From the NCBI GenBank assembly GCA_015228925.1, contig JADGCQ010000001.1, positions 50,669-114,668 on the forward strand: a stretch of 64,000 nt of DNA, given 5' to 3'. The notes under the pieces were generated by a model that saw nothing but the letters and a program-made list of their open reading frames with translations, was not told the DNA's origin and did no database searches. Source of the DNA: Magnetococcales bacterium. Its GTDB lineage: Bacteria; Pseudomonadota; Magnetococcia; Magnetococcales; UBA8363. Position numbers and translations under genes: made by a program. Within the stretch, counting starts at the first letter, position 1. Each line of letters starts with the position of its first letter. This document shows positions 26,999 to 63,256 of this stretch, piece after piece.

Positions 26999-27554
26999 CA
27001 CTATCCCCTGAAAGTTCAAGTAATTGAAGATTAACAAACCGTTCTAAAGTGATTCTGACCTTACGGGGATCACCACCCAATTCAGCAGCAATTTCACCAC
27101 TCATTCTGCTTGGCCATGATTCCCATGCTGCCCGGTTTTCCCGGCCAGAATCCCTGGCAGCTTTCCGAACCTCATCAGCATCCAAAAGCTGCCCTGTCTT
27201 GTATTTCCTTTCCAACGTAAGTAATTGCCCCCGCTCAATTTCTGACTTTAATTTCGCAAGAGTCAGTTTCTTCGTCAGCGTATTACCTGAATAGCTGTGC
27301 GGATTTTCCTGGTCGTGCTGGTCGTGTTGGTCTTCCTTGGAATGCGGATCTTCATGACCAGCCGCACCGTAACGCCCAAGCTGACGCGCCGGATTCCGTT
27401 GAAGGGCAAGAGCCTCCATGGCTTGCTCTGGATCGACCTTCCCATCCCGTAAAATGACGGTCCCGTTTCTCACCAACTTGCTTACGTACTGCCTGGAAAA
27501 CTTTTGGCGTCGTGCAAATTCGGATTGAGTGATCAATATTTTATTTTTCGCCAT
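26979..27554 (-). CDS. terS: Terminase small subunit (Nu1-like N-terminal winged HTH)
   Basis: Immediately upstream of and overlapping terL. N-terminus ITQSEFARRQKFSRQYVSKLVRNG looks like an HTH. His/Asp/Gln-rich linker. Confidence 0.65.
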   Translation of the reverse strand: MAKNKILITQSEFARRQKFSRQYVSKLVRNGTVILRDGKVDPEQAMEALALQRNPARQLGRYGAAGHEDPHSKEDQHDQHDQENPHSYSGNTLTKKLTLAKLKSEIERGQLLTLERKYKTGQLLDADEVRKAARDSGRENRAAWESWPSRMSGEIAAELGGDPRKVRITLERFVNLQLLELSGDSDEDLES

Positions 27555-27674: not shown

Positions 27675-29030
27675 TTATTCTTCGATGCTGACGTTCCGTT
27701 CCGCAGCCACGGTTTCAAATGTTTTCCCGCCAGAGCCGTCCAGGTAGACGATCCGTCCGGTCGCTTTGATGTACCGTTTCACGGCAACGTCAACAAAATT
27801 CGGTGATAATTCCATTGCATAAACTTTGCAACGTGCGTTTTCGCCAGCTATGATTTGGGAGCCAGAACCGGAGAACGGTTCGTAGCAAACATCGCCCGGA
27901 CGAATGTGCATCCTCATTGGTATGGCAAAACAATCAAGCGGCTTCGGAGTCGGGTGGTCAGGGCGTTCATCGCCAAGGAGAGAATCGATCTCCCATACCG
28001 TGGCCTGGGAACCTGAGTCCTTGTTGTGATGCGGAGTCTTTCCCCTCATCCAGCCAAATAAGCATGGCTCATGGTTCATCATGTAGAGCGCCCGGCCCAT
28101 AACCTTGTTGTTTTTCTTCCAGATGATTTGCTGGTGAACGAAAGCACCGGCACGTTCCCAGGAAGATTCAACCATCATTTGTTTCTTGTAGGCGTGCCAG
28201 CAGTACCATGCCGCACGCTCATCAATCGCATGTTCCACAGCAATCTTGATAAGCCGATCAAAGAACTCATCTCCATCGCCATTGGAATCCCACGTCGTGC
28301 CATGCGCTGTAGACCAATCTCTTTCAACTTCACTGATCTGTTTACCTTCGGCGCGTTTCTCATCACGCTCTTTATTGACGCGCTTAAAGCCAGCCGGATG
28401 ACTTGCACCAGAATAATTGATCAGGTAGGGAGGATCGGTGGCAAACAGTTTTGCCCTCTCCCCGTTCATAAGCCGGATGACGTTTTCTTCGTTCAGGCTG
28501 TCACCACAGAGCAGACGGTGTTCCCCCAAAATCCACAAGTCACCCGGTTGCGTGACAGCGACAGTCGGCGGTTCCGGGATTTTGTAGTCCAAGCCGTCCG
28601 ATTCACCTGAACCTTCAATCTCTTTTTCGATACCAGCAAGTAATTTATCAATCTCATCGGAGTTGAATCCGGTCATATCCAAGTCAAAGCCATCATTTGA
28701 AAGATCTTCAAACTCAAGCCGCAATAATTCTTCATCCCATTCGGCCCAACTTGCCGATCTATTCGCCAGCAAACGAAATGCTTTTATTTGCGTCGGTGAT
28801 AGTTCGTCTGCCAGTGCTACCGGGACATTTTTCAATCCGCTTTTAATTGCAGCCTTCAATCTCAGATGGCCATCAATTACAGTTCCGTCACTAAGCGCAA
28901 CGATTGGAATCCGAAACCCGAACTCCTTGATGGCAGCAACCATTTGCGTTACCGCTTCATCATTCTTTCGCGGGTTACGAGCGTATGGTGTGAGTCGTTC
29001 TATCGACCATTCTTCCACTTTTAAAGGCAT
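27675..29030 (-). CDS. ParB-like nuclease domain fused to a beta-class N6-adenine/N4-cytosine DNA methyltransferase
   Basis: N-terminus ...YARNPRKNDEAV..MVAAIKEFGFRIPI... is ParB/Srx-like. Motif IV DPPY (FATDPPYLINY) precedes motif I FSGSGS, which is the beta-class order. Confidence 0.85.
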   Translation of the reverse strand: MPLKVEEWSIERLTPYARNPRKNDEAVTQMVAAIKEFGFRIPIVALSDGTVIDGHLRLKAAIKSGLKNVPVALADELSPTQIKAFRLLANRSASWAEWDEELLRLEFEDLSNDGFDLDMTGFNSDEIDKLLAGIEKEIEGSGESDGLDYKIPEPPTVAVTQPGDLWILGEHRLLCGDSLNEENVIRLMNGERAKLFATDPPYLINYSGASHPAGFKRVNKERDEKRAEGKQISEVERDWSTAHGTTWDSNGDGDEFFDRLIKIAVEHAIDERAAWYCWHAYKKQMMVESSWERAGAFVHQQIIWKKNNKVMGRALYMMNHEPCLFGWMRGKTPHHNKDSGSQATVWEIDSLLGDERPDHPTPKPLDCFAIPMRMHIRPGDVCYEPFSGSGSQIIAGENARCKVYAMELSPNFVDVAVKRYIKATGRIVYLDGSGGKTFETVAAERNVSIEE

Positions 29031-29249: not shown

Positions 29250-29621
29250 GGACCGATCATTGCGTTAGGTAAACGGATCGAAGATTGCACTATACATCCT
29301 GGACCAAAGATTGCACTATAAATATTGGACCGATCATTGCTACCAAACAAATGGACCAAAGAATGCAATAAACAAACGGATCGAAGATTGCATCAAGCAA
29401 CTGGACCGAAGATTGCACCATACAATCGGACCAATCATTGCATCATAAGGATTGGACCAAAGATTGCGACCATGTATTGGACCAATCATTGCACTATACA
29501 GACTGGACCAACCATTGCATTACATAACGTGGACCTACCATTGCATTGGATACATTGGACCGAAGATTGCGACTATGTAATGGACCAATCATTGCTAAAC
29601 ATAGTCTGGACCAGATATTGC
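29250..29621. repeat. Iteron array: 15 direct copies of GGAYCNAHNATTGC spaced 25-26 bp apart
   Basis: Copies start at 29250, 29275, 29301, 29327, 29353, 29378, 29403, 29428, 29454, 29479, 29505, 29531, 29557, 29582 and 29608, all in the same orientation. Two subtypes are present: ..ATCATTGC and ..AAGATTGC. Confidence 0.9.
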
Positions 29622-30064
29622 TACGCGCACCACATACTAAGCCCTAGCCTATCCATGCCCTAGCCATGCCTTGCCCATGGCGTGGCGTGGCGTGGCCGTG
29701 CCTTATCCCCTTGGCATTGCTCCAATTTCCCGTTTTCTATAGCCAAAAACAACAAGTTACAAGATTCTTGCAACATGTTTTTCGTTCAATATCAATGCGT
29801 TGAGTGACCGTTGCTATGAAATTCGTGAATTTTAATTTGAAAAATTATTCAACAATTTCAATATATTACGATTTGAATTCTTAGTCTAAAAAACTCCACA
29901 TAAAACGATGTGTTTCAAGAAAAATCAAGAAAATTCACGATTCTTTTCTCTTTTGTTCCGTTGTTTTTATTCACATTTTATCGACTACCCGTTTTTTTAT
30001 CCTTAGATTTAAAAAATAGTGGTTGATAAGAGATTATATCGGAGCGATAGTTGAATTGTCAGTT

Positions 30065-30121
30065 GGGAACAAAGAGAGAACAAACAGGGAACAAACAGGG
30101 AACAAAACAGGGAACAAAAAC
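30065..30121 (+). repeat. Five tandem GAACAAA(C)AGG-type units in the 5' leader of the first plus-strand gene
   Basis: gggaacaaagaga gaacaaacagg gaacaaacagg gaacaaaacagg gaacaaaaac, ending 25 nt before the ATG at 30147. Confidence 0.8.
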
Positions 30122-30146
30122 TTTAAAATATTTTGGAGAAAATAGA

Positions 30147-30761
30147 ATGAAACAGATCGGACAACAATTCGACTTTGAAAATTCCAAGAATATGGATGCC
30201 GAGTGGTTGAACTTTGAAAATGCTGCACAAGCAGCACATGAAAGCATCCTGCAAATACCATACTACAGTGATGCCATCCAGGGTGAAATCCTGGAAGAAC
30301 AAGAAGAAAAACAGGAAGAACAAACCGAAAACAAGTTTGATGACGTTATCTTGGAAGTTTGCAACGGAATCATGAAGCTTTGCATCGTTGACAGGGAAAA
30401 GGATGCAATCAAACTCCTGAAAGTGGTTGGAAACAAATTCGGATTTGAGTCAGATTATTACAATCTGGCTCTTGAGACTTTGGTCGATACGACCAAAAAA
30501 ACAGGATTGGCCAAGGGATTCGGATCGGCCAAGGGCAAAAAGGTTAAGGACCACAAGAAAGATGCAGTTGAATCGTTGTTGTTGCGCCCATGTGGCGCAA
30601 ATGCTACGGAAATTCATGCCATCACCGGATGGCAGATTCACACCATCCGAGCGTTCGTCTCTACCCGTAAGAAGCATGGTTTCAATGCTTGGAAGAATGT
30701 CATGCAAAAAAGTGGTGAGAAGCCAATCACCACTTGGTTCATCGAACGGATAGCTGCATAA
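30147..30761 (+). CDS. DUF3489-like (winged-helix) domain protein with acidic N-terminal region
   Basis: GGAG RBS before the ATG at 30147. The C-terminus ...LLLRPCGANATEIHAITGWQIHTIRAFVS... matches the DUF3489 pattern (RP.GAT..E....TGWQ.HS.RGF.S). Confidence 0.6.
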   Translation: MKQIGQQFDFENSKNMDAEWLNFENAAQAAHESILQIPYYSDAIQGEILEEQEEKQEEQTENKFDDVILEVCNGIMKLCIVDREKDAIKLLKVVGNKFGFESDYYNLALETLVDTTKKTGLAKGFGSAKGKKVKDHKKDAVESLLLRPCGANATEIHAITGWQIHTIRAFVSTRKKHGFNAWKNVMQKSGEKPITTWFIERIAA

Positions 30762-30861
30762 GCCATCCTAATCTCCTGGACGCCAACATTTAATGGCGTC
30801 CAGGGTTTTAACTAATTTTTTAATGTGTTTAAACAATCAATAAACAACAGGATCTAACGTG

Positions 30862-31083
30862 ATGAGGATATTAAGCCAAGGATTTTGTATGCGACCTCAT
30901 GTTAATGCCGTGATCGTTGGCAGGGGGAACAGTGCAAATGCTGCTTTCTGGAACGCAGTGAAACAAGGGGTTCCAGAGGATTTTTGCAAAAACGGATGGA
31001 GATTCACTCACCGTGAAAGGTGGGAATTGTATCCAGACGGTACAGAGGGACCAATTGAGTATAGGATTTCATTTGGTGAGTAG
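30862..31083 (+). CDS. Hypothetical protein (73 aa)
   Basis: ORF with the operon orientation. Weak RBS. Confidence 0.3.
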   Translation: MRILSQGFCMRPHVNAVIVGRGNSANAAFWNAVKQGVPEDFCKNGWRFTHRERWELYPDGTEGPIEYRISFGE

Positions 31084-31329
31084 CTGTTCAAGATCAAGAT
31101 GATACCTTTAAGGATGCACTAGCATCCACGGTTTAAGCAACGGATTATAAGGAACCGTGTGGATGTTGGCTAGTTGCGCCTTGCATGTTTTGAATTCTAC
31201 GATGTGCGTTTCTTAAACGGAACATCGCATCGTTTCAATAAACACCAACACAACGCTGGCATTGTATAGAGCCATAAATATAAGGTTCTGGCTCTACATA
31301 ATGCCAACAAATTAAACAGGAGCAATCCT

Positions 31330-31767
31330 ATGATTTTCAAGATGACGGTCGTTGCGAGCGTTGATATGCAAAAACTTATCAGCGTGAAAGCAAAATCGGT
31401 GATGGATGCCGAATTTAAGTATCAAAAGTTTCTGAATGCTCGGTCACAATTCACCGGAGCAACGAACGATGGGTTTAAGTTCACATACATCCATCACATA
31501 TCGCCAGTTTACAAGTTCGATCTTGCCAGAACGGAAGATGGACGTTTCGCTGGGGTTGTCCAGGCCAACATCACCATGACTCTGAATGTGTGTAAGGAAT
31601 GCACATCGGAGCAAGATGCTTGGGAAAAGGCTGAAAAACAATTCATCGAATTGAAACAAGCCGATCCATTCTATGATTGGGAATGGAAAAGCTGGATTGC
31701 TGCCGAAGAAAGCAGCAGGTACATGATGAAACACTTTTATACCGAACAGGATCGGGTTGCTGCATAA
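31330..31767 (+). CDS. Hypothetical protein (145 aa)
   Basis: AGGAG RBS 7 nt upstream of the ATG. Confidence 0.45.
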   Translation: MIFKMTVVASVDMQKLISVKAKSVMDAEFKYQKFLNARSQFTGATNDGFKFTYIHHISPVYKFDLARTEDGRFAGVVQANITMTLNVCKECTSEQDAWEKAEKQFIELKQADPFYDWEWKSWIAAEESSRYMMKHFYTEQDRVAA

Positions 31768-31813
31768 GCAACTGACGATAAACAACCACATTAAATTAAA
31801 AAGGATGACGAAA

Positions 31814-32905
31814 ATGCAACTCACACAAGCCAGCAACCAATGGAAGAACCGACCTGATGATGAACGGTTTTTGAGTATAACCGACATGAACAATCATTTC
31901 CAAAGGCTTCGATCCCGAAGTGCGGAAAAGGTACTCTTGAACAGTGATTTGAGAGTGATCCCCAACGCCAGCGGGAATGGAGAAATCGAGATCATCGGTA
32001 AGAATTCGACCATACCTGCAAAAATTACCCATTGGTCGCTCGGCCAGTTGGCGCAACGCGCTCAGGCTCCAGCGTCTTACATCCGGTCGCTGCCTCCTGA
32101 AATTGCATCGACCTGTTTGAACTATGGCTTGCAGAGCAGCGGGGTCGGCTCCATCGGCGCGTTGCTTTCAGTCAATGACAACATGGAGCCGGAACTTCGC
32201 GCAGTGACAGGTCCGAATTATGGACGGATCTGGAATGCGACCATCAGCAATGCCATCGTTGAACGGTTTGGGGATGGCATCACCAGTGATTTTCGGGTTC
32301 CGGGTGAATTCGGAAAAGACATCGTTGTGACGAAACAGAACACAACGCTGTACGCCAGCGACCGTGACATGTTCGTTTTCCTTGCGGATGAGAAAAACCG
32401 CATCGAAATCCCCAACAGGAGAGACGGAAAAAACGGATCGCTCGCTCGCGGGTTCTTCGTATGGAACAGCGAAGTTGGAGCAGCCACGTTCGGGGTTGCA
32501 TCATTCCTGTTCGACTACGCTTGCAGCAACCGCATCGTCTGGGGTGCGCAAGGGTATAAGGAATTCAAAATCAGGCACACCAGCCAAGCACCGGAACGCT
32601 GGATCGAAGAGATCCACCCGATGATCAAGCAGTACACCAACAGCAGCACGATGGGGATCGTAACCGCAATCAAATCAGCGATGAATATGCCCGTCGCTGA
32701 CCCGAAGGGATTTTTGCAACAAAGGTTCACCGGAACGCTGGCTGATAAGATCATGCAAGCGCATTTCAATGATGAACACAAACCCATTGAAACAATCTGG
32801 GATGTCACAACTGGCATCACAGCGTTTGCCCGATCAATCGAACATCAGGACGCCAGGGTGGGCATGGAGCGGACCGCTGGTAAAATCCTGGAAATGGCTC
32901 TCTAG
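31814..32905 (+). CDS. DUF932-like (phage/plasmid-like protein) family member
   Basis: ...QWKNRPDDERFLSITDM...RAVTGPNYGRIWN...FFVWNSEVGAATFGVASFLFDYACSNRIVWG... resembles DUF932 by eye. The start could also be 31805. Confidence 0.6.
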   Translation: MQLTQASNQWKNRPDDERFLSITDMNNHFQRLRSRSAEKVLLNSDLRVIPNASGNGEIEIIGKNSTIPAKITHWSLGQLAQRAQAPASYIRSLPPEIASTCLNYGLQSSGVGSIGALLSVNDNMEPELRAVTGPNYGRIWNATISNAIVERFGDGITSDFRVPGEFGKDIVVTKQNTTLYASDRDMFVFLADEKNRIEIPNRRDGKNGSLARGFFVWNSEVGAATFGVASFLFDYACSNRIVWGAQGYKEFKIRHTSQAPERWIEEIHPMIKQYTNSSTMGIVTAIKSAMNMPVADPKGFLQQRFTGTLADKIMQAHFNDEHKPIETIWDVTTGITAFARSIEHQDARVGMERTAGKILEMAL

Positions 32906-32985
32906 GCTTGCGAACGATCAAGGGCTGCACATTTAAGCAGCCCTTGAAATTCACATATTAATATAAACTATCAAGGACATATAAA

Positions 32986-33336
32986 ATGGAAACCATCGAA
33001 ACCAAAGAAGTCAGCGTCCAAGACATACTGGACAGCGTGTTCACCACAGCTACCAATCCAGGAGATGCTCGCCAGACAGGGAGTGCCGCAAGACTCCCCA
33101 AAGCCATCAACTCACAACATCACCATAACGTCGTCATGCTCCTACTCCATCGGCCTTGTGGCGTCACGCAACAGCAGATCACCGATGCTACCGGGTGGAA
33201 CGCAGCCAATACCAGGATGTTTTTCTCCATGGCCCATCAGCGGTTCGGTGTGCTTGTGTCCATCAAACAGACTTTGAAAGACGGCGTAAAAACGATCTCT
33301 TACAGCGTTGTCGAGCAAGCCCAAAGGAGCGCATGA
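32986..33336 (+). CDS. Divergent DUF3489-like protein (116 aa)
   Basis: AAGGA RBS. ...LLLHRPCGVTQQQITDATGWNAANTRMFFS... aligns by eye with the other two DUF3489-like C-termini. Confidence 0.5.
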   Translation: METIETKEVSVQDILDSVFTTATNPGDARQTGSAARLPKAINSQHHHNVVMLLLHRPCGVTQQQITDATGWNAANTRMFFSMAHQRFGVLVSIKQTLKDGVKTISYSVVEQAQRSA

Positions 33337-33337
33337 A

Positions 33338-33586
33338 ATGGTTGCACTTGAAGACATCACCAACCAGCAAAGAGATGCACTGAAAGAACTATTCTTTGAT
33401 CAAACGCTGGAAGAAAACCTCATCGACGTCTTCCAACTACCAATTAGTGATCGATATATCGATCATGGGGCCGCAGAAGCAATAGAAAGATCCGGCATCG
33501 TCCAAAGTTGGATGGTCTGGATCGACTATATTGGGAGAGAAGCATATGCGATCAACCCGGATGGAAAAGTCACCATCATTGATTGA
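33338..33586 (+). CDS. Small paralogue 1 of a tandem family (82 aa)
   Basis: Preceded by the conserved junction aaaggagcgcatgaaATG. Shares the pattern (T/S)N.Q..AL.EL.....W..WI.Y.....A..I.PDG. Confidence 0.5.
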   Translation: MVALEDITNQQRDALKELFFDQTLEENLIDVFQLPISDRYIDHGAAEAIERSGIVQSWMVWIDYIGREAYAINPDGKVTIID

Positions 33587-33601
33587 AAAGGAGCGCATGA
33601 A

Positions 33602-33805
33602 ATGATGAAAATTGAGCAATTAACCAACAAACAAATAGCCGCACTTGAAGAGCTACGGCATGACGTGAGCATCGAGGTCGGGATGACCGACGTTTTGTTC
33701 GATGTTCATCCGCTGCCAATCGGCGGTTGGATCATCTGGGTGAATTACATCGACCAAGTAACCTTCATCATCGACCAAGATGGTGAAATCACCCGACTGG
33801 ATTGA
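33602..33805 (+). CDS. Small paralogue 2 of the tandem family (67 aa)
   Basis: Same junction, aaaggagcgcatgaaATGATG. ...LTNKQIAALEEL...GGWIIWVNYIDQVTFIIDQDGEI... Confidence 0.5.
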   Translation: MMKIEQLTNKQIAALEELRHDVSIEVGMTDVLFDVHPLPIGGWIIWVNYIDQVTFIIDQDGEITRLD

Positions 33806-34194
33806 TGGTGGCCAAGCAAATGAGCGGAAAAATGATCAAACTCGTAGAGATTACCAGAGATTGCATAGGCTGCAAAAGCTGCAAAGATTGCATCACCTGG
33901 ATCAATAGCACCATTCAAGAAGCGTTTGTGATCAAACCGGATGGGGCAACCATCTACATCATTCCTAAAGGATTGCATGAAATGATTAAAATGGAGGATA
34001 TGTCAGCACAGCAATTCGCTGTGATGAGGGGTCTTTTTATATCCGGCAAGATGCCGAACCTGGACGATGCTCATTGGGTTCCGATAGGCACAAGTGATTG
34101 CATCCTATGGATAAACTTTGACAGCAAGGAAGCTGGCATAGTCAAACCTAACGGGAAAACCGAAGAATTCGCATCAACAAGAATGGGAGCGTGA
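33805..34194 (+). CDS. Fused paralogues 3+4 of the tandem family (129 aa)
   Basis: TGATG overlap with the previous stop. An internal relic of the junction (cctaaaggattgcatgaaatg at ~33966) lies in frame between the two modules. Confidence 0.5.
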   Translation: MVAKQMSGKMIKLVEITRDCIGCKSCKDCITWINSTIQEAFVIKPDGATIYIIPKGLHEMIKMEDMSAQQFAVMRGLFISGKMPNLDDAHWVPIGTSDCILWINFDSKEAGIVKPNGKTEEFASTRMGA

Positions 34195-34195
34195 A

Positions 34196-35389
34196 ATGAA
34201 ACACACACAAAAATTAAGCGGAACGCAGGAAAGCATCATCTACAGCGCAATTCTGCGGTTAGGGAAGTCTATTCATCCTTTACCGTACTACCTGAACGGC
34301 GCACCAGCGAAAAAGGTGCTGGCAGCCCTCCGGTCGAAAGGGTACATCGATGACAAAGACATCGTAACCCAGGAAGGTATTGAAATGTTCAATGCCTTCC
34401 GAAAGAGCAAAGGTGTCCAGGAAGTCATATTGATGGAAAACAGTGAACCGCTTACGGAGCCTACCATCGTTTCCATAGCGGAAACCATGGCCGAACCCAT
34501 GCCGGAAACCATGGCCGAGCCTATGCCGGAAACCATGGCCGAACCTATGCCGGAAACCATGGCCGAGCCTATGCCGGAAACCATGGCCGAACCTATGCCG
34601 GAAACCATGGCCGAACCCATGCCGGAAACCATGGCCGAGCCTATGCCGGAAACCATGGCCGAACCCATGCCGGAAACCATGGCCGAGCCTATAGCCGCCG
34701 ATGAACCAGCGGGCGATCCGGCAGCCGACGCTCCGGCATCCGACGCTCTTGCAGCACTTTCGGACGCTGATCTTTCAAACTCAGCTTTTCTCGAAAACTT
34801 GAAAGAGTTTGTCGATCAAACCGTTTCGGAGCATGGAGAAAAACATGTTGCAGAGCCAGAAATTTGTGATTTTAAGGAACTGGATCTGGACAAACTGGAT
34901 TCTAAGGAATCGGAAGTGGATGAATATCTTGCGATTTACATCCCAGAGATTCATAAACGCATCGACATGCGAAATTGGACCTCTGTACATAATGCGCTTG
35001 TGTTTATCAGGGAGAAACACGGGAAAGCGAGCTTCCATCACCTAGTTGCCACCACCGAGGCATTGAAATACACTTTCAATGCCGGGATGGATCAAGGTAA
35101 AACATACGTCACATGCAGATCACAAAATGGAACCAAAAAAGCCAAAGTGATTGAGATGATCATGCGACCTGAAGGCGTCACGCTCGATGAAATCTTTGAA
35201 CTCACCAAATGGCAACCACATTCCATCAGGGGGTTCATTTCGACCATCAAAAAGGATCTTGGCATTGAGATCCTTGTCTCCAAGGAATGGATTGCCGGAG
35301 CAAAAGGCAAACCGACCACAACATACAAGGGTGTTTCGCCACAAGGAACTACCGATCAGGCCACCGAACTGGCCAACATGGCTGCATGA
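34196..35389 (+). CDS. DUF3489-like C-terminal domain protein with (ETMAEPMP)n repeat linker (397 aa)
   Basis: GGGAG RBS. The C-terminus ...MIMRPEGVTLDEIFELTKWQPHSIRGFISTIKKDLG... is a strong DUF3489-like match. Central 24-bp repeat array. Confidence 0.65.
   Translation: MKHTQKLSGTQESIIYSAILRLGKSIHPLPYYLNGAPAKKVLAALRSKGYIDDKDIVTQEGIEMFNAFRKSKGVQEVILMENSEPLTEPTIVSIAETMAEPMPETMAEPMPETMAEPMPETMAEPMPETMAEPMPETMAEPMPETMAEPMPETMAEPMPETMAEPIAADEPAGDPAADAPASDALAALSDADLSNSAFLENLKEFVDQTVSEHGEKHVAEPEICDFKELDLDKLDSKESEVDEYLAIYIPEIHKRIDMRNWTSVHNALVFIREKHGKASFHHLVATTEALKYTFNAGMDQGKTYVTCRSQNGTKKAKVIEMIMRPEGVTLDEIFELTKWQPHSIRGFISTIKKDLGIEILVSKEWIAGAKGKPTTTYKGVSPQGTTDQATELANMAA
34481..34696 (+). repeat. 24-bp in-frame tandem repeat, 8 full units plus 1 variant (gaaaccatggccgaRccYatgccg = ETMAEPMP)
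   Basis: Counted directly. Units start at 34481, 34505, 34529, 34553, 34577, 34601, 34625, 34649 and 34673. Only synonymous third-position differences distinguish them. Confidence 0.9.
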
Positions 35390-35399
35390 TTCTCAAACA

Positions 35400-35430
35400 A
35401 AGCGGGGGACCGCTTATAGTTCCCCCGCTT
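35400..35430 (+). terminator. Terminator-like hairpin after the 397-aa gene
   Basis: Perfect 10-bp inverted repeat aagcggggga / tcccccgctt with an 11-nt loop. Only a short T run follows, so termination efficiency is uncertain. Confidence 0.4.
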
Positions 35431-35441
35431 TAGGAGCGAGC

Positions 35442-35681
35442 ATGGTAAAAATAAAAAAAGAGCCGTTTAGGCATGTAAGACGGTTTATGATCGATATACA
35501 TTCCGTTCTCCAGGAAGCAAACTGCTGCCAAAAATCAGAAGGTTGTCCTGATTGGGCAACCATCAAGATGCTGGTCGAGGCCGCTTATAGGCTCGGCGTG
35601 GAGCATCAAACAGATCCAGTCAGACGTTATCTTTCTGTGAAAAAAAGCATTCAGAGAACACCACCGTCGGAGTCAGACTAA
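35442..35681 (+). CDS. Hypothetical protein (79 aa)
   Basis: AGGAG RBS 6 nt before the ATG at 35442. TAATG overlap with the next gene. Confidence 0.4.
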   Translation: MVKIKKEPFRHVRRFMIDIHSVLQEANCCQKSEGCPDWATIKMLVEAAYRLGVEHQTDPVRRYLSVKKSIQRTPPSESD

Positions 35682-36283
35682 TGGCGACAATAGATGTAAC
35701 ACCAGTTGATGCGTTTGAATTCGTATATGAGTTTCATTGCGAATGGACTCATCTGCTGCAAATTCATCTGGACCAACCACACTATCTAAGGGTGACCCAT
35801 ATCCCAAACTTCCTGATGGAAGATGAAGAAAAGATTAAAAATGTATTGGTGGTTCCATTTGCAACAAATATTAATGCAATTAAGTTTGTTGCTCTACTTG
35901 AGACTAAAATCTCAAGTCTTGCTGACATAGTGACAGCAGGAACGGACGGAACCACCTATACTCTCGATGAGAAAGCAAAAGCCGCACTGGCAACCATTAC
36001 CGCTATCCTTGCCGACGTTAATAGCCATTGTGACCGGGTTGAAATCGGTGTTTCACCCGAATGGGTTTGCAGCGGCAATTGCGATACGCTCCGGTGCAAC
36101 GGTGATGATAAGATTAAGAATTACGCCGAACAGCACATCGCCCTGATTGAATCCAAGGGCGGGAAAGTTTTTGGTGGGGTTCCCGCTCTCGTCAAAGCCA
36201 TCAAGGAAAAGCAACTGTTCGACCCGGAAGAGCTTTTATCCCAGGACGAACTGGATGAGATGCCATGGCTCGGTAAAAAATAG
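35681..36283 (+). CDS. Hypothetical protein (200 aa)
   Basis: Translationally coupled to the upstream ORF. No motif recognised. Confidence 0.45.
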   Translation: MATIDVTPVDAFEFVYEFHCEWTHLLQIHLDQPHYLRVTHIPNFLMEDEEKIKNVLVVPFATNINAIKFVALLETKISSLADIVTAGTDGTTYTLDEKAKAALATITAILADVNSHCDRVEIGVSPEWVCSGNCDTLRCNGDDKIKNYAEQHIALIESKGGKVFGGVPALVKAIKEKQLFDPEELLSQDELDEMPWLGKK

Positions 36284-36329
36284 GTAGGCAACAGGCAACA
36301 GGCAACAGGCAACCAACCAAGGAACCAAA

Positions 36330-36680
36330 ATGAACCAAAATGGAACCAAAATGCAAAACTTTTCCATCATTGAAGATAACGGTGGAACAATCCACATTAT
36401 TATCCATGAGCCGAATGATGATTCTTGCACGACTTGCATCATGGCTTTCGCTGGTGAATGGAACATACTGGCCGAAGCGGTCAAAGATTTGTTCAATGGG
36501 GAAGATCCAAGCGATTGGGAAAACGCTGTAGAAAATCCCCAAGAACATTGGGATTATTACACCGTTGAAAGCCTCCAGAACGGCGGCTGGAAATACATCG
36601 CTGACAGTAAGGGCGGATGGTTCGGATCTGAGACTTTTGGCTTTGCTGGCCAATCGCTTTACGAGGCTTGCCAATCTTAG
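36330..36680 (+). CDS. Hypothetical acidic protein (116 aa)
   Basis: The start lies within a short tandem repeat. The in-frame ATG at 36351 is an alternative. Confidence 0.4.
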   Translation: MNQNGTKMQNFSIIEDNGGTIHIIIHEPNDDSCTTCIMAFAGEWNILAEAVKDLFNGEDPSDWENAVENPQEHWDYYTVESLQNGGWKYIADSKGGWFGSETFGFAGQSLYEACQS

Positions 36681-36733
36681 CTGTAATATTAAACTCCTGG
36701 ATCTACAGGAACAATCAGTAAAGGAAACATAAA

Positions 36734-37198
36734 ATGGGAATCTTTAAGCAACTTTCCGAGAAGGGTTTCACTCTGGAATCCATCAATATGTTGGAAGAAA
36801 TTATCGCAGTTGAATGGGCCAAGAACGATGATGACTATCCAACATTCGCCGTCGAACTGATGGGTAATCTGCAAGAGCTTGTAGAGAACAGCATCAGAGC
36901 AGGTACAGGATTTTTCGGTTTCGACCGTTGGCAGCAGAAAGGGGATCACGCCACTGGTGTTACCCGGTTTAAGGTCTCCATGGTGACGCCAACCATGGTC
37001 AAACAGCTTCATGGAACGTGCAGCGCAAAGGGCAAGGTGAAGCTGGAGGATGGGGTGACGCTAGACGACATCGACCGTAAATGTCTTGCTACATTGGTAT
37101 CCCCCCGGCCCCAGGTGGAAGAAGACTTGTACGAAGATGAGCAATTTATCGATCACGACGCCATCGAAGAGGAAGCAGCAAACCCCAATTGGGCTTGA
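36734..37198 (+). CDS. Hypothetical protein (154 aa)
   Basis: AAGGA RBS. Last gene of the plus-strand operon, followed by terminators. Confidence 0.45.
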   Translation: MGIFKQLSEKGFTLESINMLEEIIAVEWAKNDDDYPTFAVELMGNLQELVENSIRAGTGFFGFDRWQQKGDHATGVTRFKVSMVTPTMVKQLHGTCSAKGKVKLEDGVTLDDIDRKCLATLVSPRPQVEEDLYEDEQFIDHDAIEEEAANPNWA

Positions 37199-37232: not shown

Positions 37233-37280
37233 AGCCCTGGCCCTTGCCAGGGTTTTAACTTTGCCCCCTTGCCAGGGTTT
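37233..37280 (+). terminator. Duplicated rho-independent terminator at a convergent gene junction
   Basis: ccctgg-cccttg-ccaggg followed by tttt (37235-37256). The element cccttgccagggtttt is directly repeated at 37265-37280. Confidence 0.6.
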
Positions 37281-37913
37281 TTATTTTGCCGTCGCCGTGG
37301 CGTATCTCAAGGCGTCCACAAACCGTTTTTGGATTCGCAATCCGGCCACCCTTTTTGCCGTTTTCTCAAAACCAAACCTTGGTTTAATTTTCGAGTCGCG
37401 GGAAAACATGTACATCAACGCCAACGGTTGCCGCTTTTTCCCCTCATACCGACCGCTCGGCATCACCTGCTTTTTGCCCGTCCGATGCCAGACACCATAC
37501 CGATGACCGCCAGAAGAGATCGGCGCAATAAAATGCCCCTTCTTTGCCATCAATTTTCCGGGATATTTCCCCGGCCTGGTTAAATCGGTTTTACGTTTCC
37601 TGGCACCAACAGGGATGGCTGGAGCCTTGCCTGATTCTAAACTCCTGACGCCACCTTCCTCCTGGACCGCCATGAACTGATCTTTGACGTAGACCGTGGC
37701 TTTCAGGTTATTATTGGTCGCCTTTGTTACCTTGATGCCCTTCGCAATCCATGTGGTCCTGATCGTGAATCTTTCCGGTAGTTCCTTCCGCACCTCGGCC
37801 TGAATATCATAAGCCGTGTCGGTCAACGCTTTGGAGGCAGCAAAAATCACCTGCTTTTGTGCTGCCGCAAAAAGTCGGTCAACCTGCGCGAAGTTGATAT
37901 TTACCCCAAACAT
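37281..37913 (-). CDS. Hypothetical basic protein (210 aa), possibly virion-morphogenesis related
   Basis: Last gene of the minus-strand lysis cluster. No secure motif. The functional guess is weak. Confidence 0.35.
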   Translation of the reverse strand: MFGVNINFAQVDRLFAAAQKQVIFAASKALTDTAYDIQAEVRKELPERFTIRTTWIAKGIKVTKATNNNLKATVYVKDQFMAVQEEGGVRSLESGKAPAIPVGARKRKTDLTRPGKYPGKLMAKKGHFIAPISSGGHRYGVWHRTGKKQVMPSGRYEGKKRQPLALMYMFSRDSKIKPRFGFEKTAKRVAGLRIQKRFVDALRYATATAK

Positions 37914-37916
37914 GAA

Positions 37917-38300
37917 TCATTTTTCATAGTTGCTGTTTACCTCGTCGCCGCGATCTGGTCTACCAGCACGCCGAAACTCCCGACCTAAATCTTCGCGTCT
38001 CTGGTGATAGACGTATTCATCAGACCTGGAATCAATGCGAACGATTAATTTAGAAACTAATTCCAGGTTGGTCTTACTCACATTATCTATCATCCTTTTT
38101 AATTCATCAATATCTTCATTTTTGACTCTGTTTTCAGCGCAATGAAGTTGAAACTCCATGAAACTATCAGATACTTCATCAACACGTCTTTTTAAATCTT
38201 TATGGATATGGAACTGCCCGTAAATTAATGCAGCAAGGATGAGAAATAAAGCGGTTGGACCACCACTAGAAACAGCATTTATTGTGGTTATGATGTCCAT
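37917..38300 (-). CDS. Single-pass membrane protein with coiled-coil ectodomain (holin- or i-spanin-like, 127 aa)
   Basis: One N-terminal hydrophobic helix (GGPTALFLILAALIYGQF), then a charged helical region. No embedded out-of-frame lipoprotein ORF: both alternative frames are full of stops. Confidence 0.45.
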   Translation of the reverse strand: MDIITTINAVSSGGPTALFLILAALIYGQFHIHKDLKRRVDEVSDSFMEFQLHCAENRVKNEDIDELKRMIDNVSKTNLELVSKLIVRIDSRSDEYVYHQRREDLGREFRRAGRPDRGDEVNSNYEK

Positions 38301-39009
38301 TACGTCGCTCCGGTATCTTTAAAACATTTTTCAGGTAAGAATCCATTGAATGTTTGCTTAGTGAAACTAATCCACTTTTCCTGTTTTTTGTCATAGCGTT
38401 GAAACCTGCCATGGCTCGTTGTTGCCATGTCGGATTGACAACCGTGTGATCAGCGTCAAAAAATACAACCTGCCCAGAATGACGAAACCGGATAAACGTA
38501 GGCAAATGCGGCACTATGTCTCCAGCGTTTACAACTCGGATGTAACTGTTTTCCCAATCTTTAAAAACATTTGACACCCATTTAGCATCACCAACCCTTG
38601 GTTGACCAAATGTGTGAAGATGCAGCTTTACATTCGGCAATAGGTGCATGTACCTTGCGGCAGTTACCACAGCGATTGCACCGCCAAGCGAGTGGCCACA
38701 AAAGGTAATATTCTTCCAAGGTCTGTGCGCGACCTGTCGGTCTATATCATCTTCAATCTCTTTGGCCGCATTGCAAAAACCAGCATGAAGACTTCCGTAT
38801 GGAGTTTTGATCTTTCGCACATCAAGATTTTCAAGCCAATCGGCCATTTCATTTGTTCCAGCAAATGCAACCCAAATGTCATCGCCTCTGATAGCTGTTA
38901 GCCACTGGATGTTATTGTTGCTGAACCTCCTTATTCTGAATCCAAACACCCGTACTTTGCATGGATCGTAAATCCTGGAAGCAAAGGTTGCTGATAGCTT
39001 GATGTGCAT
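38266..39009 (-). CDS. Class-3 (triacylglycerol-type) lipase / esterase family protein
   Basis: Lipase_3 hallmarks: ...VAFAGTNEMADWLEN..., nucleophile elbow GHSLGGA, ...TFGQPRVGD..., ...NAGDIVPHLP..., ...SKHSMDSY... Confidence 0.8.
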   Translation of the reverse strand: MHIKLSATFASRIYDPCKVRVFGFRIRRFSNNNIQWLTAIRGDDIWVAFAGTNEMADWLENLDVRKIKTPYGSLHAGFCNAAKEIEDDIDRQVAHRPWKNITFCGHSLGGAIAVVTAARYMHLLPNVKLHLHTFGQPRVGDAKWVSNVFKDWENSYIRVVNAGDIVPHLPTFIRFRHSGQVVFFDADHTVVNPTWQQRAMAGFNAMTKNRKSGLVSLSKHSMDSYLKNVLKIPERRNGHHNHNKCCF

Positions 39010-39041
39010 GGATTTGCTCCAAAGGTCAGGGATTTTCAGAG

Positions 39042-39509
39042 TTAGGAATGCGCCGTCAGTCGATTCCAGTTGGCGATGTACTCTTCCGGTTTGCCCTTGC
39101 CCTTGATGGTGTTATAGTGCTTCTTCCAATAGATCGCCTGGCCATGAAGATCACCAGCAGCAGGAAGCAGTTCATCTTTCCTGAAATAGTGAATCCGGCA
39201 CATCGCGCAGCCATACCTGAGATCGTACAAGAGCCGACCTGCGTTGTGCGTAAGATCGGTCCCTAAAACCTTGGCCGCGAGCGAACCCCTGGCTTGCAAA
39301 AAATTAATCCAGATGTCGTCGTGAGTTGCTGGCTCCATCTGCCAAAGCCCTAAAGCTGGACCACCGCCTTGCTGTTTGATCAAACGCAGCCCGGACTCCT
39401 GGATGCACGTACCCAGGACAAGTTCCTCCGCTGCCAAAGACCAAAGGTCCAGTTGTTTGAGCGTTGGGATTATGATGTATTCTCGGAGTTGGAAAGTATT
39501 CAGGCTCAT
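39042..39509 (-). CDS. Endolysin, SLT-type lytic transglycosylase-like
   Basis: AAGGAA RBS. ...GTCIQESGL...GPALGLWQMEP... resembles the E-S...GLMQ signature of the SLT domain. No signal or SAR sequence. Confidence 0.6.
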   Translation of the reverse strand: MSLNTFQLREYIIIPTLKQLDLWSLAAEELVLGTCIQESGLRLIKQQGGGPALGLWQMEPATHDDIWINFLQARGSLAAKVLGTDLTHNAGRLLYDLRYGCAMCRIHYFRKDELLPAAGDLHGQAIYWKKHYNTIKGKGKPEEYIANWNRLTAHS

Positions 39510-39690
39510 GGTTTAGAATTTCCTTTTATAAATCGAGCGTTTCCGTTTTGTACCGTTTCCGTTGCACTTTGATATACCTCCAAGATGCCCGGTGCTGGCA
39601 CACCAAGCGTAGTTTGGGATCGCGGAAGCGATCACCGGACACCTTGGGGGTTCGGAATATCTCTTCTACGCTCTATGTCCAGTGCCAACC

Positions 39691-39720
39691 GGACAACAAA
39701 AAGCCACCCGAAGGCGGCTT
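39691..39720 (-). terminator. Rho-independent terminator (minus strand)
   Basis: Minus strand: AAGCCGCC-TTCG-GGTGGCTT followed by TTTTGTTGT. Confidence 0.6.
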
Positions 39721-39895
39721 GCGTTATTTGTAATTCGTGGGGGGGTCTCGCCAAATCTGGCGAATCAATATGACCGACCTTTTTGACGTTCCCCAGTTTT
39801 GGGGAACGTCAAAACAAAGTCTTGATTTTCCATGAATTCGAACTTATCGATCCGGTCTTTGATCCAGGTCGAAAAATCCTTACCGACCTCCAGGG

Positions 39896-40087
39896 TTAAA
39901 AATCAAAGCTTTTTGATTCTCTTCGCATGGATTCTCTTCGCCTGGATTTCTCCGGCTTGTTCTTCGGTTTGTTCTTCGGCTTGTTCTTCGGCTTGTTCTT
40001 GTTTTTCTTTTTCGATGTAAACTTCGGATGACAGCCGCAAACTCCAAAATCTCTTCCACACACTTCACATTCGTTGCTCTTGGCCAT
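39896..40087 (-). CDS. Small Cys-cluster protein with (KNKP)4 basic repeat tail
   Basis: MAKSNECEVCGRDFGVCGCHPKF...KNKPKNKPKNKPKNKP... GAGGA lies 10 nt upstream of the ATG at 40087. The longer ORF (TTG at 40123) would start inside a terminator T-run. Confidence 0.35.
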   Translation of the reverse strand: MAKSNECEVCGRDFGVCGCHPKFTSKKKNKNKPKNKPKNKPKNKPEKSRRRESMRRESKSFDF

Positions 40088-40120
40088 CACCGTCATATCC
40101 TCGCCGTCATGCCATCGTAC

Positions 40121-40202
40121 CAAACAAAAAAACCCGCGACGAAATGCGCGGGTTCTGAAATTTCAATAAATAAAAAAAGGCCCAACCGGGGGGATTGGAC
40201 CT
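40121..40202 (-). terminator. Two tandem rho-independent terminators (minus strand)
   Basis: Minus strand: AGGTCCAA..TTGGGCCT followed by TTTTTTTA (40171-40202), and AACCCGCG..CGCGGGTT followed by TTTTTTGTTTG (40121-40154). Confidence 0.6.
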
Positions 40203-40405
40203 TTTAGCCCGATGCTCTTGGCTGAAACAGGAGCATCGGGGTGTAAATAAACTCGCAAAACTCAGGGACCAAACTCAGGGATCTACTCCAGAGGCAACTC
40301 GACTGGTACAAAAACGATAGCACAAATCTAAGAACAACATCAATAAAAAATGAAAGGATGAAGTGCTTCGTCTTAGTTTTTTATTGTCTTTACGGTTACT
40401 TACAA

Positions 40406-41029
40406 TTATTTGAACGCCTCGGTGCTATGGATTGGGTAGCGTTTACCGAGCATACCAAGCGCAGCACTCAGCACTCCAAATGTGAAATGGTAGTCGATTA
40501 CATTTCTTGAATTTGTATATTTCTCTAGTTGATCGCCAAGACCGAGAATGTGCCACACTGCATGTCCAGCGGGTGAATCCACCCCGCCAAGGTAATCCAT
40601 CGTCCGTGAGACGTGCTTTTGAGCCATTTCAACAAGATCCCAATTACGCTCATGCCCGGTTGGCGCACGGTTCAGGTCAACAGCACTTATCTGATCCAGC
40701 ATAGCGATGGTGAAATGGTCTTGAAATTGTCTGCCAGCGTTATACTGTGCATGATTGATCTTTCCTTTGCGATACAGTATTTCAAGTACATCCTGTATCC
40801 GGCGTTTCTGTTTTATTTGACCATCGGTAGCTTCGACTGTCAGCTTGTACTCCCTGCCTCCCGGCCCAGGAGCAGGGATATAGCCAACTTCCGCACCTCC
40901 GTTCTTGGGCAAGGGTTTTGGCATCGGCTTCCGGCCATGCTGTGGTCTACCAGCCTTCCCTGTTTTCCTGATTGCCCCAGGATTCGATTTTTCGCCTCTG
41001 CTTTCGCCCGTCAAAATCTGTTCTTGCAT
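40406..41029 (-). CDS. Hypothetical DNA-binding-like protein (DUF6456-like by eye, 207 aa)
   Basis: ...LYRKGKINHAQYNAGRQFQDHFTIAML... resembles the alphaproteobacterial DUF6456 pattern. Basic N-terminus. Confidence 0.35.
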   Translation of the reverse strand: MQEQILTGESRGEKSNPGAIRKTGKAGRPQHGRKPMPKPLPKNGGAEVGYIPAPGPGGREYKLTVEATDGQIKQKRRIQDVLEILYRKGKINHAQYNAGRQFQDHFTIAMLDQISAVDLNRAPTGHERNWDLVEMAQKHVSRTMDYLGGVDSPAGHAVWHILGLGDQLEKYTNSRNVIDYHFTFGVLSAALGMLGKRYPIHSTEAFK

Positions 41030-41295
41030 TTTGCCACTCCAAACCAGGTTTAAAATCGTGCGCTTTGTCGCGTGAGAGTCCCTGTGTTGCGTTTTTCTAC
41101 TGTCTTGGCTACCTACCTACCATGGCATAGCCAACGACGCTTAAAATGGCCTTTTTTGCGCCAGGAGAAAAAATCATTTTGCCAGGCCGCTCTGGAAAAA
41201 TTTCCCCGCCGTACTGCAAAATCATAACACGATGGCCAATTATGATCGGTTTGCATATCGGTACGAGCAGTTTGCTCATCGCCCATGATCATTTA

Positions 41296-42058
41296 CCTTG
41301 TAACGGCGTAACAGACAATTTGCCTGCTGTGCGGGTTTGTTACAAATTTTGTTACGCAAAAATTTTAACAATTATAGCCACTTCCTTATATATATATAAA
41401 TATGTAACATATATATATATATATATATATAGATGGGGATATATATGAAAATATTTTTATGTGTGACTCTCTCCTTTTTTATATGGATATATCCCGGAGA
41501 AGTTTGTTACGCCATTTTTTGTCACAAACCGCTCCCAAGCCAACAGAAAAATCATTATAAAGCGTTGTTAATGATTAAATATAAAATTGTACCAGTTTTT
41601 GGAAAATTTTCCAGTTGTAACAAAAATCGCCATGGGCAGGCCCAAAATTTTCCCGATTTACCCACCATGGAGGTGCTTTTGGAAAAAATTTTGGGAAAAA
41701 TTTTCCAAAAACACGTCCAAAAAAAATAATTTTGCCCCCAGAAAAAATAATTTCGGCCACGTTTTTGAAAATTTTTTGGGAAATTTTTCCACTTTTCCAA
41801 AAAATTTTTCCACTTTTGGGGAAATTTTTCGGGAAATTTCCAAAATTTTTCCCGGCTCCAAAAATTTTTCCCAAAATTTTCCAAAATTATTTTTCGTGCC
41901 AAATAATATTTTTGGACCAAGAAAAGTTTCCTTTGTAATAAAAACAAGCACATGACCGTTTTCCCCCAAAAAAGCCATCGGGAAATTTTTTCTGGAAATT
42001 TTCCCCGGTCGAAAAATTTTCCCCGGTCGAAAATTCTCAAGATGCCAAGAATACAAAT
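41296..42058. other. Candidate replication origin / architectural DNA region: TTTGTTAC repeats, (TA)n, and an array of G/C-flanked AnTn tracts
   Basis: GTTAC/GTAAC at 41300, 41308, 41339, 41351, 41404, 41506 and 41617. At least 17 AnTn blocks lie between 41603 and 41925. An 18-19-bp tandem aaattttccccggtcga x2 sits at 41996-42030. No credible ORF. The region abuts the primase-helicase gene. Confidence 0.5.
41387..41431. repeat. (TA)n dinucleotide tracts
   Basis: (TA)6 at 41387-41398 and ~11.5 AT units at 41409-41431, separated by aatatgtaac. Confidence 0.9.
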
Positions 42059-45341: not shown

Positions 45342-45346
45342 GGAAT

Positions 45347-45927: not shown

Positions 45928-45948
45928 TAACTTTGCCCCACTTACTTT

Positions 45949-63174: not shown

Positions 63175-63256
63175 AACTGTAACTGATCGCGCCCCTTGCC
63201 ATCGCGTTTGGTTGGCAAGGGGCATGGCCCTTCTTCCCTGTTACAAGGAAACCATC

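Follow-up and report, generated by a model that had tools for sequence, protein, structure and literature searches.

The block of genes analysed here resembles parts of several described systems. Moron hotspots of temperate phages occupy a fixed position near the packaging module, vary in content and hold accessory genes (cargo) with their own transcription signals, and Rousset et al. are said to have described, in 2022, variable loci of P2-like phages and their satellites that lie next to the cohesive-end site (cos) and the packaging genes. In acr/aca operons, small, fast-changing and often acidic genes are accompanied by a conserved helix-turn-helix (HTH) gene that can be used as a search anchor. 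The leading or establishment regions of conjugative plasmids and of integrative and conjugative elements (ICEs), reportedly treated by Samuel et al. in 2024, are said to contain ssb, psiB, ardA and genes for ParB-methylases. The immI region of phage P22 (mnt/arc/ant) has genes for small DNA-binding proteins with ribbon-helix-helix folds that run against the flow of transcription within the late region. Here, we studied a stretch of 64,000 nucleotides (the window) located in a 148-kb contig (JADGCQ010000001.1) of a metagenome-assembled genome of a Magnetococcales bacterium. The window carries a temperate tailed phage of this magnetotactic bacterium, and our subject is a block of genes at positions 30147-37198, in particular its ninth gene, g09, which encodes a protein with a DUF3489 domain.

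On balance, we favour the view that the block is an accessory-gene island that has grown in one fixed slot of the temperate phage, around g09 as a conserved anchor. What the window contains is a cargo hotspot that has expanded around a conserved gene of the phage, not a dedicated family of decoys. Because the slot of related phages holds toxin-antitoxin, Fic, methylase, resistance and recombinase genes, we regard it as a general cargo hotspot rather than as an anti-defence island. What was a list of unknowns thereby becomes a defined architecture, in which a conserved anchor and variable cargo share a fixed slot beside the packaging genes. The block itself is of a known kind, a prophage accessory island, whereas the arrangement of the anchor, methylase and terminase genes at the junction is apparently undescribed.

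Like the moron hotspots, the slot keeps its position near the packaging module while its content varies, its cargo has terminator-like hairpins of its own, and the cargo of relatives includes toxin-antitoxin and defence-type genes. Unlike those hotspots, it is marked by a conserved, counter-oriented winged-helix gene, and its cargo in the window has no PADLOC match and the same GC content as the phage backbone. With the acr/aca operons it shares the small, often acidic genes near a conserved gene usable as an anchor, as well as direct repeats between a promoter-like site and the first gene, g01, that could be an operator. It differs from them in that the anchor usually stands alone, without cargo, and for this reason the anchor is unlikely to be merely a regulator of the cargo; moreover, there is no Pfam or PHROG similarity to Aca families, and no link to clustered regularly interspaced short palindromic repeats (CRISPR) is apparent. 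The likeness to plasmid and ICE leading regions is confined to gene types (DUF932, ParB_N-methyltransferase and small orphans), whereas the element is a tailed phage whose DNA enters the cell in double-stranded form, and the scans of the window show no origin of transfer (oriT), relaxase, ssb or psiB. By analogy, P22 immI would be comparable in having counter-flow genes for small DNA-binding proteins in the late region of a temperate phage, but the fold here is a winged helix instead of a ribbon-helix-helix, and the block has no antirepressor gene, a Rha-like gene being located elsewhere. At the level of single proteins, members of the block share sequence and fold with the families PF11994 and PF06067 (TIGR03299, 'phage/plasmid-like protein').

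The anchor gene at the operon junction

For the synteny analysis we fetched 160 loci with the DUF3489 gene oriented on the + strand, and each feature was counted over the evaluable subset. In these loci the anchor gene runs against the flow of the lytic genes. A homologue of the ParB-methylase gene is present on the opposite strand within 4.5 kb downstream of the anchor in 100 of 111 loci (52 of 53 viral and 48 of 58 genome loci), and in 64 of 114 (31 of 54 from viruses, 33 of 60 from genomes) the opposite strand carries genes for a terminase of the lambda gpA type (TerS/TerL) no more than 3 kb upstream. The methylase gene is less than 700 nt away in 32 viral and 23 genome loci, which leaves no room for another gene, and the anchor is the sole gene in the slot in at least 55 loci. 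The canonical order is portal <- TerL <- TerS <- (HNH), then DUF3489 ->, then <- ParB-methylase <- 146-aa <- 244-aa ... <- primase <- SNF2. The anchor is, accordingly, a lone counter-flow gene at the junction of the early/middle operon with the late operon. In the Magnetococcales subgroup, to which the window belongs together with loci L121, L123, L125 and L134, the methylase gene has been relocated next to TerS; the DUF3489 gene is divergent with respect to it and convergent with respect to the lysis genes and the gene for a 210-aa protein (37281-37913), homologues of which occupy the equivalent position in the Magnetococcales relatives L122-L125 and L134. In the window, g09 is the ninth gene of the block, so it does not lie immediately beside the methylase and terminase genes.

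In the g09 protein, a long acidic linker joins a winged-helix-like domain at the N-terminus (residues 2-66) to the DUF3489 winged helix at the C-terminus. The N-domain has about 65 aa and the consensus LTxxQxxIL..A....G.I.P.P..LKGGA..KV...L..GLI; it is recognised in g09 by a profile that was built from 70 relatives with the window sequence excluded (Table 1). Both domains occur together in 123 open reading frames (ORFs) of the fetched loci, and PF11994 is present in 20 of 20 sampled relatives. The proteins encoded by g01 and g05 have the C-domain only, without the N-domain. The preliminary description of this DNA, made from its letters and ORFs, had listed three DUF3489-like proteins with a common C-terminal motif. 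At the Pfam gathering score of PF11994, 29.5 bits, this is borne out for g01 (39.9 bits) and g09 (60.4 bits), which also carry the motif, whereas g05 lies just under the cut-off (28.2 bits) and its motif is degenerate (TGWNAANTRMFFS). Judged by its match to a profile of relatives, g05 is a divergent DUF3489 paralogue.

An AlphaFold model of the DUF3489 domain of g09, computed from four sequences, has an overall predicted local distance difference test score (pLDDT) of 76 and a core at 88-94. The predicted fold is a canonical winged helix, with helix H1, a short strand, H2, the recognition helix H3 and a beta-hairpin wing, and its Foldseek neighbours in the PDB are the winged helix of TFIIE-alpha (E 1e-3), MarR, PadR, HlyU and Pex. 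The sequence of the recognition helix, T-G-W-Q-x-H-T-[VI]-R-G, hardly varies within the family and between phyla, which may reflect a conserved target, whether a site, a structure of the DNA or a protein, for instance the methylase. The linker of g09 is unusually long and acidic and contains nine perfect-frame 24-nt repeats coding for PETMAEPM (34479-34697); the net charge of the protein is about -27. Other Magnetococcales homologues (L118, L120, L121 and L123) have acidic linkers rich in T, E, A and P, of 100-230 aa, that often contain repeats, and those of homologues from other phyla measure about 37 aa.

A word-indexed search with full-length g09 was swamped by the PETMAEPM repeat, and a query with the linker deleted found one protein. 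Proteins of the same plan are encoded beside terminase genes in Acidithiobacillus phage AcaML1 (Gp32) and in L085 (11305-12279) and L086 (12639-13364); they came to light through relatives of the ParB-methylase, a search that gave only three loci, and through inspection of AcaML1. Pattern scans found the family in at least 513 stretches of reference genomes and at least 551 of IMG/VR, with hosts among the Alpha-, Beta- and Gammaproteobacteria, Acidobacteria, Verrucomicrobia and others. The two-domain DUF3489 protein is now linked to ParB-methyltransferase and terminase genes in more than 100 prophages of many phyla. A literature search found no functional study of the DUF3489 family.

Contents of the slot in relatives and in the window

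The slot varies greatly in size. In L134 it measures about 1.2 kb and holds one gene, L125 has two DUF3489 genes, L121 and L142 have about four genes, and the window reaches 12-13 genes in a slot of 8.2 kb. In 47 of 141 loci, 0.9-5 kb separate the anchor from the conserved gene that comes next, and these gaps are occupied by unrelated genes. The families found in them are HipA_C with an HTH protein, ParE toxin, RelB/PaaA2 antitoxins, Fic/DOC, a C-5 cytosine methylase (Dcm), a penicillin-binding/beta-lactamase-type transpeptidase domain, an HMA-P-type ATPase, a serine recombinase with DUF2924, PRiA4_ORF3, GIY-YIG and DUF7220. Going by these family matches, the slot contents of relatives are ordinary prophage cargo. 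Single cases are a beta-lactamase-like gene (L238, 2865-3680), a heavy-metal P-type ATPase gene (L158, 9069-11357), a HipA-HTH pair (L169, 8231-9822) and a gene for a Fic protein (L205, 8230-9447). In L263 (3708-5927), genes for a DUF2924 protein and a large serine recombinase and a third small gene are located directly downstream of the DUF3489 gene.

In the window, the block consists of 12 co-directional genes on the + strand, and probably of a 13th, g09b, which is preceded by AGGAG 6 nt upstream and whose stop overlaps the start of g10. All ORFs of the preliminary description were recovered on the + strand at the positions it gave, except that the start of g06 is more likely 33338. A ribosome-binding site of the AGGA/GGAG type is present 6-10 nt before the ATG of every gene except g08, several genes abut or share 1 nt, and the AT skew reverses sign exactly across 30-37 kb. 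As had been reported, the block and the ParB-methylase/TerS/TerL operon point away from each other, out of a region that is AT-rich and filled with repeats. A strong hairpin follows g01 (-23.7 kcal/mol, z -4.5), and none of 200 shuffled sequences was as stable. Because of this hairpin, the block may not be the single operon that had been proposed.

Ten island proteins were scanned for known families, g02 and g07 being only partly scanned and g09b lying outside the set. They have no replication, structural or lysis signature, as the preliminary description had stated, and no membrane or toxin signatures. None was assigned to a defence or anti-defence family (such as those of Ocr, ArdA, KlcA/ArdB or the Acr proteins) in Pfam, PHROG or NCBIfam, no dedicated anti-defence library having been used, and none matched a PADLOC defence model. 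The orphans gave no family match in whichever of Pfam, PHROGs, NCBIfam and PADLOC each was scanned against. Apart from the DUF932 gene, the cargo genes have no homologue among the related loci L001-L276, and a megablast of the entire block against phage records gave no match. Six of the block proteins are acidic, with isoelectric points (pI) of 4.1-4.8.

The four-module tandem family that had been noticed is real and lies at 33338-34194: g06, g07 and both halves of g08 align and share the motif W-I-x-Y ... I-x-P-D-G. A profile of the modules, run against 1.84 billion representative proteins, returned the window's own three proteins and repeat-protein noise only, and the family is private to this phage. 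A kinship with giant repeat proteins was considered and rejected, the hits being repeat or low-complexity noise.

The protein encoded by g04 had been called DUF932-like. Its match to PF06067 (18.4 bits, E 0.002, over a partial stretch) is below the gathering score of 23 bits, but its PHROG profile, its homologues and its predicted fold make it a DUF932-family protein. There are 5,336 homologues at about 57% identity, many of those at 55-64% having a precomputed PF06067 hit, and its tblastn matches include annotated DUF932 proteins of phages and plasmids. The AlphaFold model (pLDDT 85, predicted template modelling score 0.80) has a central antiparallel sheet and a C-terminal helical bundle, and it matches viral DUF932 proteins of BFVD with a template modelling score of 0.65 (E 5e-16). 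No PDB match was obtained by fold or by sequence. DUF932 proteins have many invariant polar residues, and a literature search found no mechanism reported for them.

DUF932 genes were found on 372 IMG/VR contigs with two peptide patterns alone. They are conserved at about 55% identity in hypervariable surroundings, in which 785 neighbouring ORFs fell into 599 clusters. In isolated phages, among them Synechococcus virus S-ESS1 and Erythrobacter phage ZS04, the gene is located among nucleotide-metabolism, methylase, Erf, SSB and RecT genes. On plasmids there were 309 hits (38-41% identity), mostly alphaproteobacterial, 184 of them on conjugative plasmids, and in one plasmid the gene stands beside ssb, radC, a large ParB-like gene and a methylase-helicase gene. 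These locations support the earlier remark on DUF932 in so far as the gene does occur in early or DNA-metabolism regions of phages and on plasmids, and the occurrence in variable phage regions and beside ssb and radC fits a role in establishment. The record of ZS04 annotates its DUF932 gene as 'integrase'. The possibility that DUF932 and DUF3489 travel together was rejected, as DUF3489 was present in 0 of 84 DUF932-anchored loci and DUF932 in 0 of 160 DUF3489-anchored loci; the pairing was found only in the window and on one ENA contig. This contig, with a 61%-identical DUF932 gene, carries an island like that of the window, in the order DUF3489, DUF932, small ORFs, DUF3489, DNA ligase and YoqU, after which minus-strand genes for lipase_3 and an endolysin come next. 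A lipase_3 gene belongs to the lysis-side cluster of the window too.

Interpretation of the block

Taking the cargo island as the preferred reading, the slot would be the one site in the phage where genes are read in the direction opposite to the lytic operons, flanked by the end of the lysis-side cluster and by the ParB-methylase/TerS/TerL operon, with a probable cos next to it. Its permanent resident would be g09, with two winged-helix domains, the N-terminal one being winged-helix-like. The fixed divergent or convergent position of the anchor, together with its fold, leads us to infer that it binds DNA and acts on the region of the packaging operon, and it is probably a regulator. It could be the phage's own DNA-binding regulator or a junction factor, acting on a control region common to the block and the packaging operon, or jointly with the neighbouring ParB-methylase. 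The variable cargo, with its own terminators, would comprise the DUF932 protein, two DUF3489 paralogues, the four-module family and seven small, mostly acidic orphans, and g01, the GGGAACAAACA repeats upstream of it and the hairpin behind it may gate read-through into this cargo. The DUF932 gene, and probably the acidic orphans too, would most likely serve the phage during establishment or early infection, because two isolated phages presumed to be lytic, S-ESS1 and ZS04, keep DUF932 among DNA-metabolism genes. The outcome is a testable hypothesis on the anchor (regulator or junction factor) and a practical marker for prophage cargo.

Several observations weigh against this reading. The 26 viral loci related to the window by TerL have neither a DUF3489 gene nor any other island protein, which implies that the anchor is not essential to this type of terminase. 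The family was found in only 5 of the 50,697 phage records searched (three of AcaML1 and two of Ralstonia). A nearly invariant recognition helix is unusual for an operator-specific regulator and could mean a protein partner or a non-specific role on DNA. Some of the large inserts in relatives were recognised by crude ORF calling in high-GC DNA. The GC content of the island (0.470) is the same as that of the phage (0.479 for the flank at 1-29030 and 0.455 for that at 37281-48124), and composition accordingly provides no sign of recent acquisition. Finally, the promoter-like match before g01 is weak and a candidate only, because sites of this type are no more frequent than in shuffled sequence.

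The preliminary description had interpreted the block as an early anti-defence island, with DNA that enters the cell first and is transcribed at once, and with proteins that neutralise restriction and other defences as decoys or adaptors. We consider this unlikely. It draws on the position of the block. In 9 of the 26 TerL-related viral contigs the sequence terminates 544-676 nt upstream of the TerL match, that is, at the TerS start, which suggests either a physical genome end (cos) or a repeat that breaks assemblies. These nine are the IMG/VR contigs L093, L094, L096, L100-L102 and L105-L107. A genome end just upstream of TerS, and with it the genome end that had been proposed near the block, is plausible from these contig ends. 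The order of packaging and ejection is taken from the example of lambda. If cos is located just upstream of TerS or of the methylase gene, the block would lie at the last-packaged and first-ejected end and would read inward from cos. By this analogy the argument from entry order is reasonable, but it is no evidence of function. The six acidic proteins and the strongly negative charge of g09, DUF932 as a conserved anchor in hypervariable phage regions and beside ssb, radC and a methylase-helicase gene on a plasmid, and the presence of a NADAR gene elsewhere in the phage are also in line with anti-defence. Against these stand the absence of any Pfam, PHROG or NCBIfam anti-defence family and of any PADLOC defence model among the scanned proteins, the toxin-antitoxin, Fic, methylase, resistance and recombinase genes that fill the slot of relatives, and the strong hairpin that parts g01 from the other genes. 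Nor does g09 behave as one module set on varied N-termini to serve as a variable adaptor or decoy: it is a lineage-wide orthologue with a fixed position and a near-invariant helix. The earlier observation is thus confirmed and its interpretation partly supported, and a new anti-defence mechanism is not established by our finding.

Rather improbable, in our view, is a moron cluster that is expressed from the prophage and is of use to the lysogen, be it by superinfection exclusion, by defence or by lysogenic conversion in some other form. Its orientation opposite to all lytic operons and its own terminators would suit such a cluster, as would the lysogen-benefit cargo of relatives (HipA, ParE/RelB, Fic, beta-lactamase-like and metal ATPase genes) and the strong selection reported for the DUF932 gene of an integrated plasmid after phage attack (preprint 10.1101/2025.06.20.660599). 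In contrast, no PADLOC model matches, the block has no membrane or toxin signatures, and for S-ESS1 and ZS04, which keep DUF932 among DNA-metabolism genes and are presumed to be lytic, there would be no lysogen to benefit.

We give only a small chance to a bolder form of the regulatory role of g09, in which a very large group of temperate phages would share the two-winged-helix DUF3489 protein as a junction factor that has escaped recognition and that works with the ParB-methyltransferase and the terminase at cos, the adjoining DNA being a general cargo hotspot. Such a factor could time or target the methylation of DNA about to be packaged, or turn on the late operon. If this were true, the anchor could be used in the manner of aca to mine counter-defence and defence genes, including DUF932 and the orphans.

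Very unlikely is a maintenance or partition module of a plasmid-like prophage, with the repeat array upstream of the block as a centromere or iterons bound by winged-helix proteins in the manner of TubR/ParR: the regular 25-26 bp array directly upstream is conserved in L121, three winged-helix proteins and a ParB_N-domain protein are encoded nearby, and neither an integrase nor a tRNA gene was seen in the window (about half of the ORFs scanned), but family scans of the block found no NTPase of the ParA, ParM or TubZ type, 144 of 146 relatives have no array upstream of the anchor, the majority of relatives are prophages integrated in large chromosomal contigs, and the replication genes are located elsewhere in the window.

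DNA elements and other features of the phage

The features of the block and of its surroundings are collected in Table 1.

Table 1. Genes and DNA elements of the block and neighbouring phage genes, in the order of their positions in the window
Feature	Position	Strand	Evidence or remarks
TerL, lambda gpA-type	25088-27037	-	GpA_ATPase E 6e-96
TerS, small terminase with N-terminal HTH	26979-27554	-	
ParB_N + N6/N4 DNA methyltransferase, first gene of the packaging operon, divergent from the island	27675-29030	-	Pfam N6_N4_Mtase E 1e-10, ParB_N E 8e-5
Array, 15 copies of GGACC-N4-ATTGC, 25-26 bp spacing	29250-29621	+	Between methylase gene and island
Weak sigma-70-like match TTGATA-17-GATAGT, upstream of g01	30023-30051	+	9/12 positions
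4.8 direct repeats of GGGAACAAACA (11 bp)	30065-30118	+	88% matches; between promoter-like site and ribosome-binding site of g01
g01, 204 aa, unique N-terminal region + C-terminal DUF3489	30147-30761	+	PF11994 E 4e-10, phrog_10315 E 7e-7, ribosome-binding site
12-bp GC-rich hairpin followed by GTTTTAAC...TTTTTT, after g01	30774-30805	+	Terminator or attenuator
g02, orphan, 64 aa (74 aa from GTG at 30859)	30889-31083	+	ORF, AAGGA upstream, no significant Pfam/PHROG match
g03, orphan, 145 aa	31330-31767	+	ORF, ribosome-binding site; no Pfam/PHROGs/NCBIfam/PADLOC match
g04, DUF932 family, 363 aa	31814-32905	+	phrog_1362 E 1e-44
g05, 116 aa, degenerate DUF3489 winged helix	32986-33336	+	PF11994 E 2e-6, family profile E 1e-9
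g06, module A, 82 aa, pI 4.2	33338-33586	+	Module alignment; ribosome-binding site context identical to that of g07
g07, module B, 67 aa, pI 4.3	33602-33805	+	Module alignment, ribosome-binding site
g08, modules C + D in one protein of 129-130 aa	33802-34194	+	Module alignment
g09, anchor gene, 397 aa	34196-35389	+	PF11994 E 2e-16, N-domain profile E 1e-16
g09b, candidate gene, 79 aa, absent from the preliminary description	35442-35681	+	In-frame part of ORF 35187-35681
g10, acidic orphan, 200 aa	35681-36283	+	ORF, ribosome-binding site; library scans without match
Repeats AGGCAAC x4 and GGAACCAAAAT x3, before g11	36286-36353	+	
g11, orphan, 116 aa, pI 4.1	36330-36680	+	Library scans without match
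g12, orphan, 154 aa, pI 4.5, last gene of the block	36734-37198	+	Library scans without match
Two tandem copies of the CCCTTGCCAGGG hairpin, each with a T-run; terminator region closing the block	37239-37290	+	
Conserved 210-aa phage protein, last gene of the lysis-side cluster, convergent with the island	37281-37913	-	
Lipase_3, lysis-side cluster	38266-39009	-	Pfam E 1e-25, GHSLGG motif (class-3 lipase)
Lysozyme-like, lysis-side cluster	39042-39509	-	
CI-like HTH repressor	48420-49133	+	Family scan

The terminator-like hairpins after g01 and g12 are convincing, as opposed to the upstream promoter match. Judged by their positions, the GGGAACAAACA repeats are a possible operator, and the short repeats before g01 and g11 may be operators or translational signals. 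The pattern GGACC-N4-ATTGC occurs 18 times in the window, where 5.8 occurrences would be expected, and 15 of the matches fall within 29250-29621. In this array two sub-types of the unit alternate, and several units contain GATC. An array of 7.8 copies of TGGACC-N5-TTGCAAC is present in the Magnetococcales phage L121 (2557-2752), between the methylase and DUF3489 genes; it has the same core, the same period and the same place as the array of the window. Arrays as a general feature upstream of the anchor were rejected, since besides L121 only 2 of 146 loci have one. The array units were also considered as sigma-54 promoters: the GG-N10-GC spacing fits that of -24/-12 elements, but there are 2 mismatches to the consensus per unit, and the pattern is not enriched in the window.

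In beta-proteobacterial relatives, an ORF of about 70 aa (MKKQNPQAIQDLLEKIALDHLF...) is conserved on the + strand between TerS and the DUF3489 gene (L149, about 7480-7700, and the equivalent region of L170, L252, L259, L274 and L168). The motif GCTTGGCTTC-N8-GAACAGCGCGT is located upstream of it, with two occurrences in L168, and may be a shared promoter or operator. The idea that this ORF was fused into the linker of g09 was rejected, as BLAST shows no similarity.

As to the phage itself, its terminase is of the lambda gpA type, judged by the GpA_ATPase match, and by TerL its closest isolated phage is AcaML1 (53% identity), followed by the Wolbachia WO phages. A minus-strand operon that diverges from the CI-like repressor gene encodes an SNF2-type helicase, a Mor-family activator, a VRR-NUC nuclease and a 990-aa primase-helicase. 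A search of the window for tRNA genes found none, and an Rfam search gave nothing relevant. The Rha-like gene mentioned above is at 63080-63745, outside the block.

Two further genes of the window are relevant to defence. A 566-aa ATPase (57758-59458), encoded next to a RecT gene (56681-57736), has AAA_23, AAA_15 and DUF2813 matches that suggest an OLD/Gabija-like or PARIS-like protein, and it may be a prophage-borne defence gene. A NADAR-domain protein is encoded at 62070-62528 (Pfam E 6e-26). NADAR enzymes can reverse the ADP-ribosylation of DNA by DarT, and because of this the NADAR protein appears to be a better anti-defence candidate than any island protein. A close homologue is encoded in the Magnetococcales prophage L134 (12561-13121).

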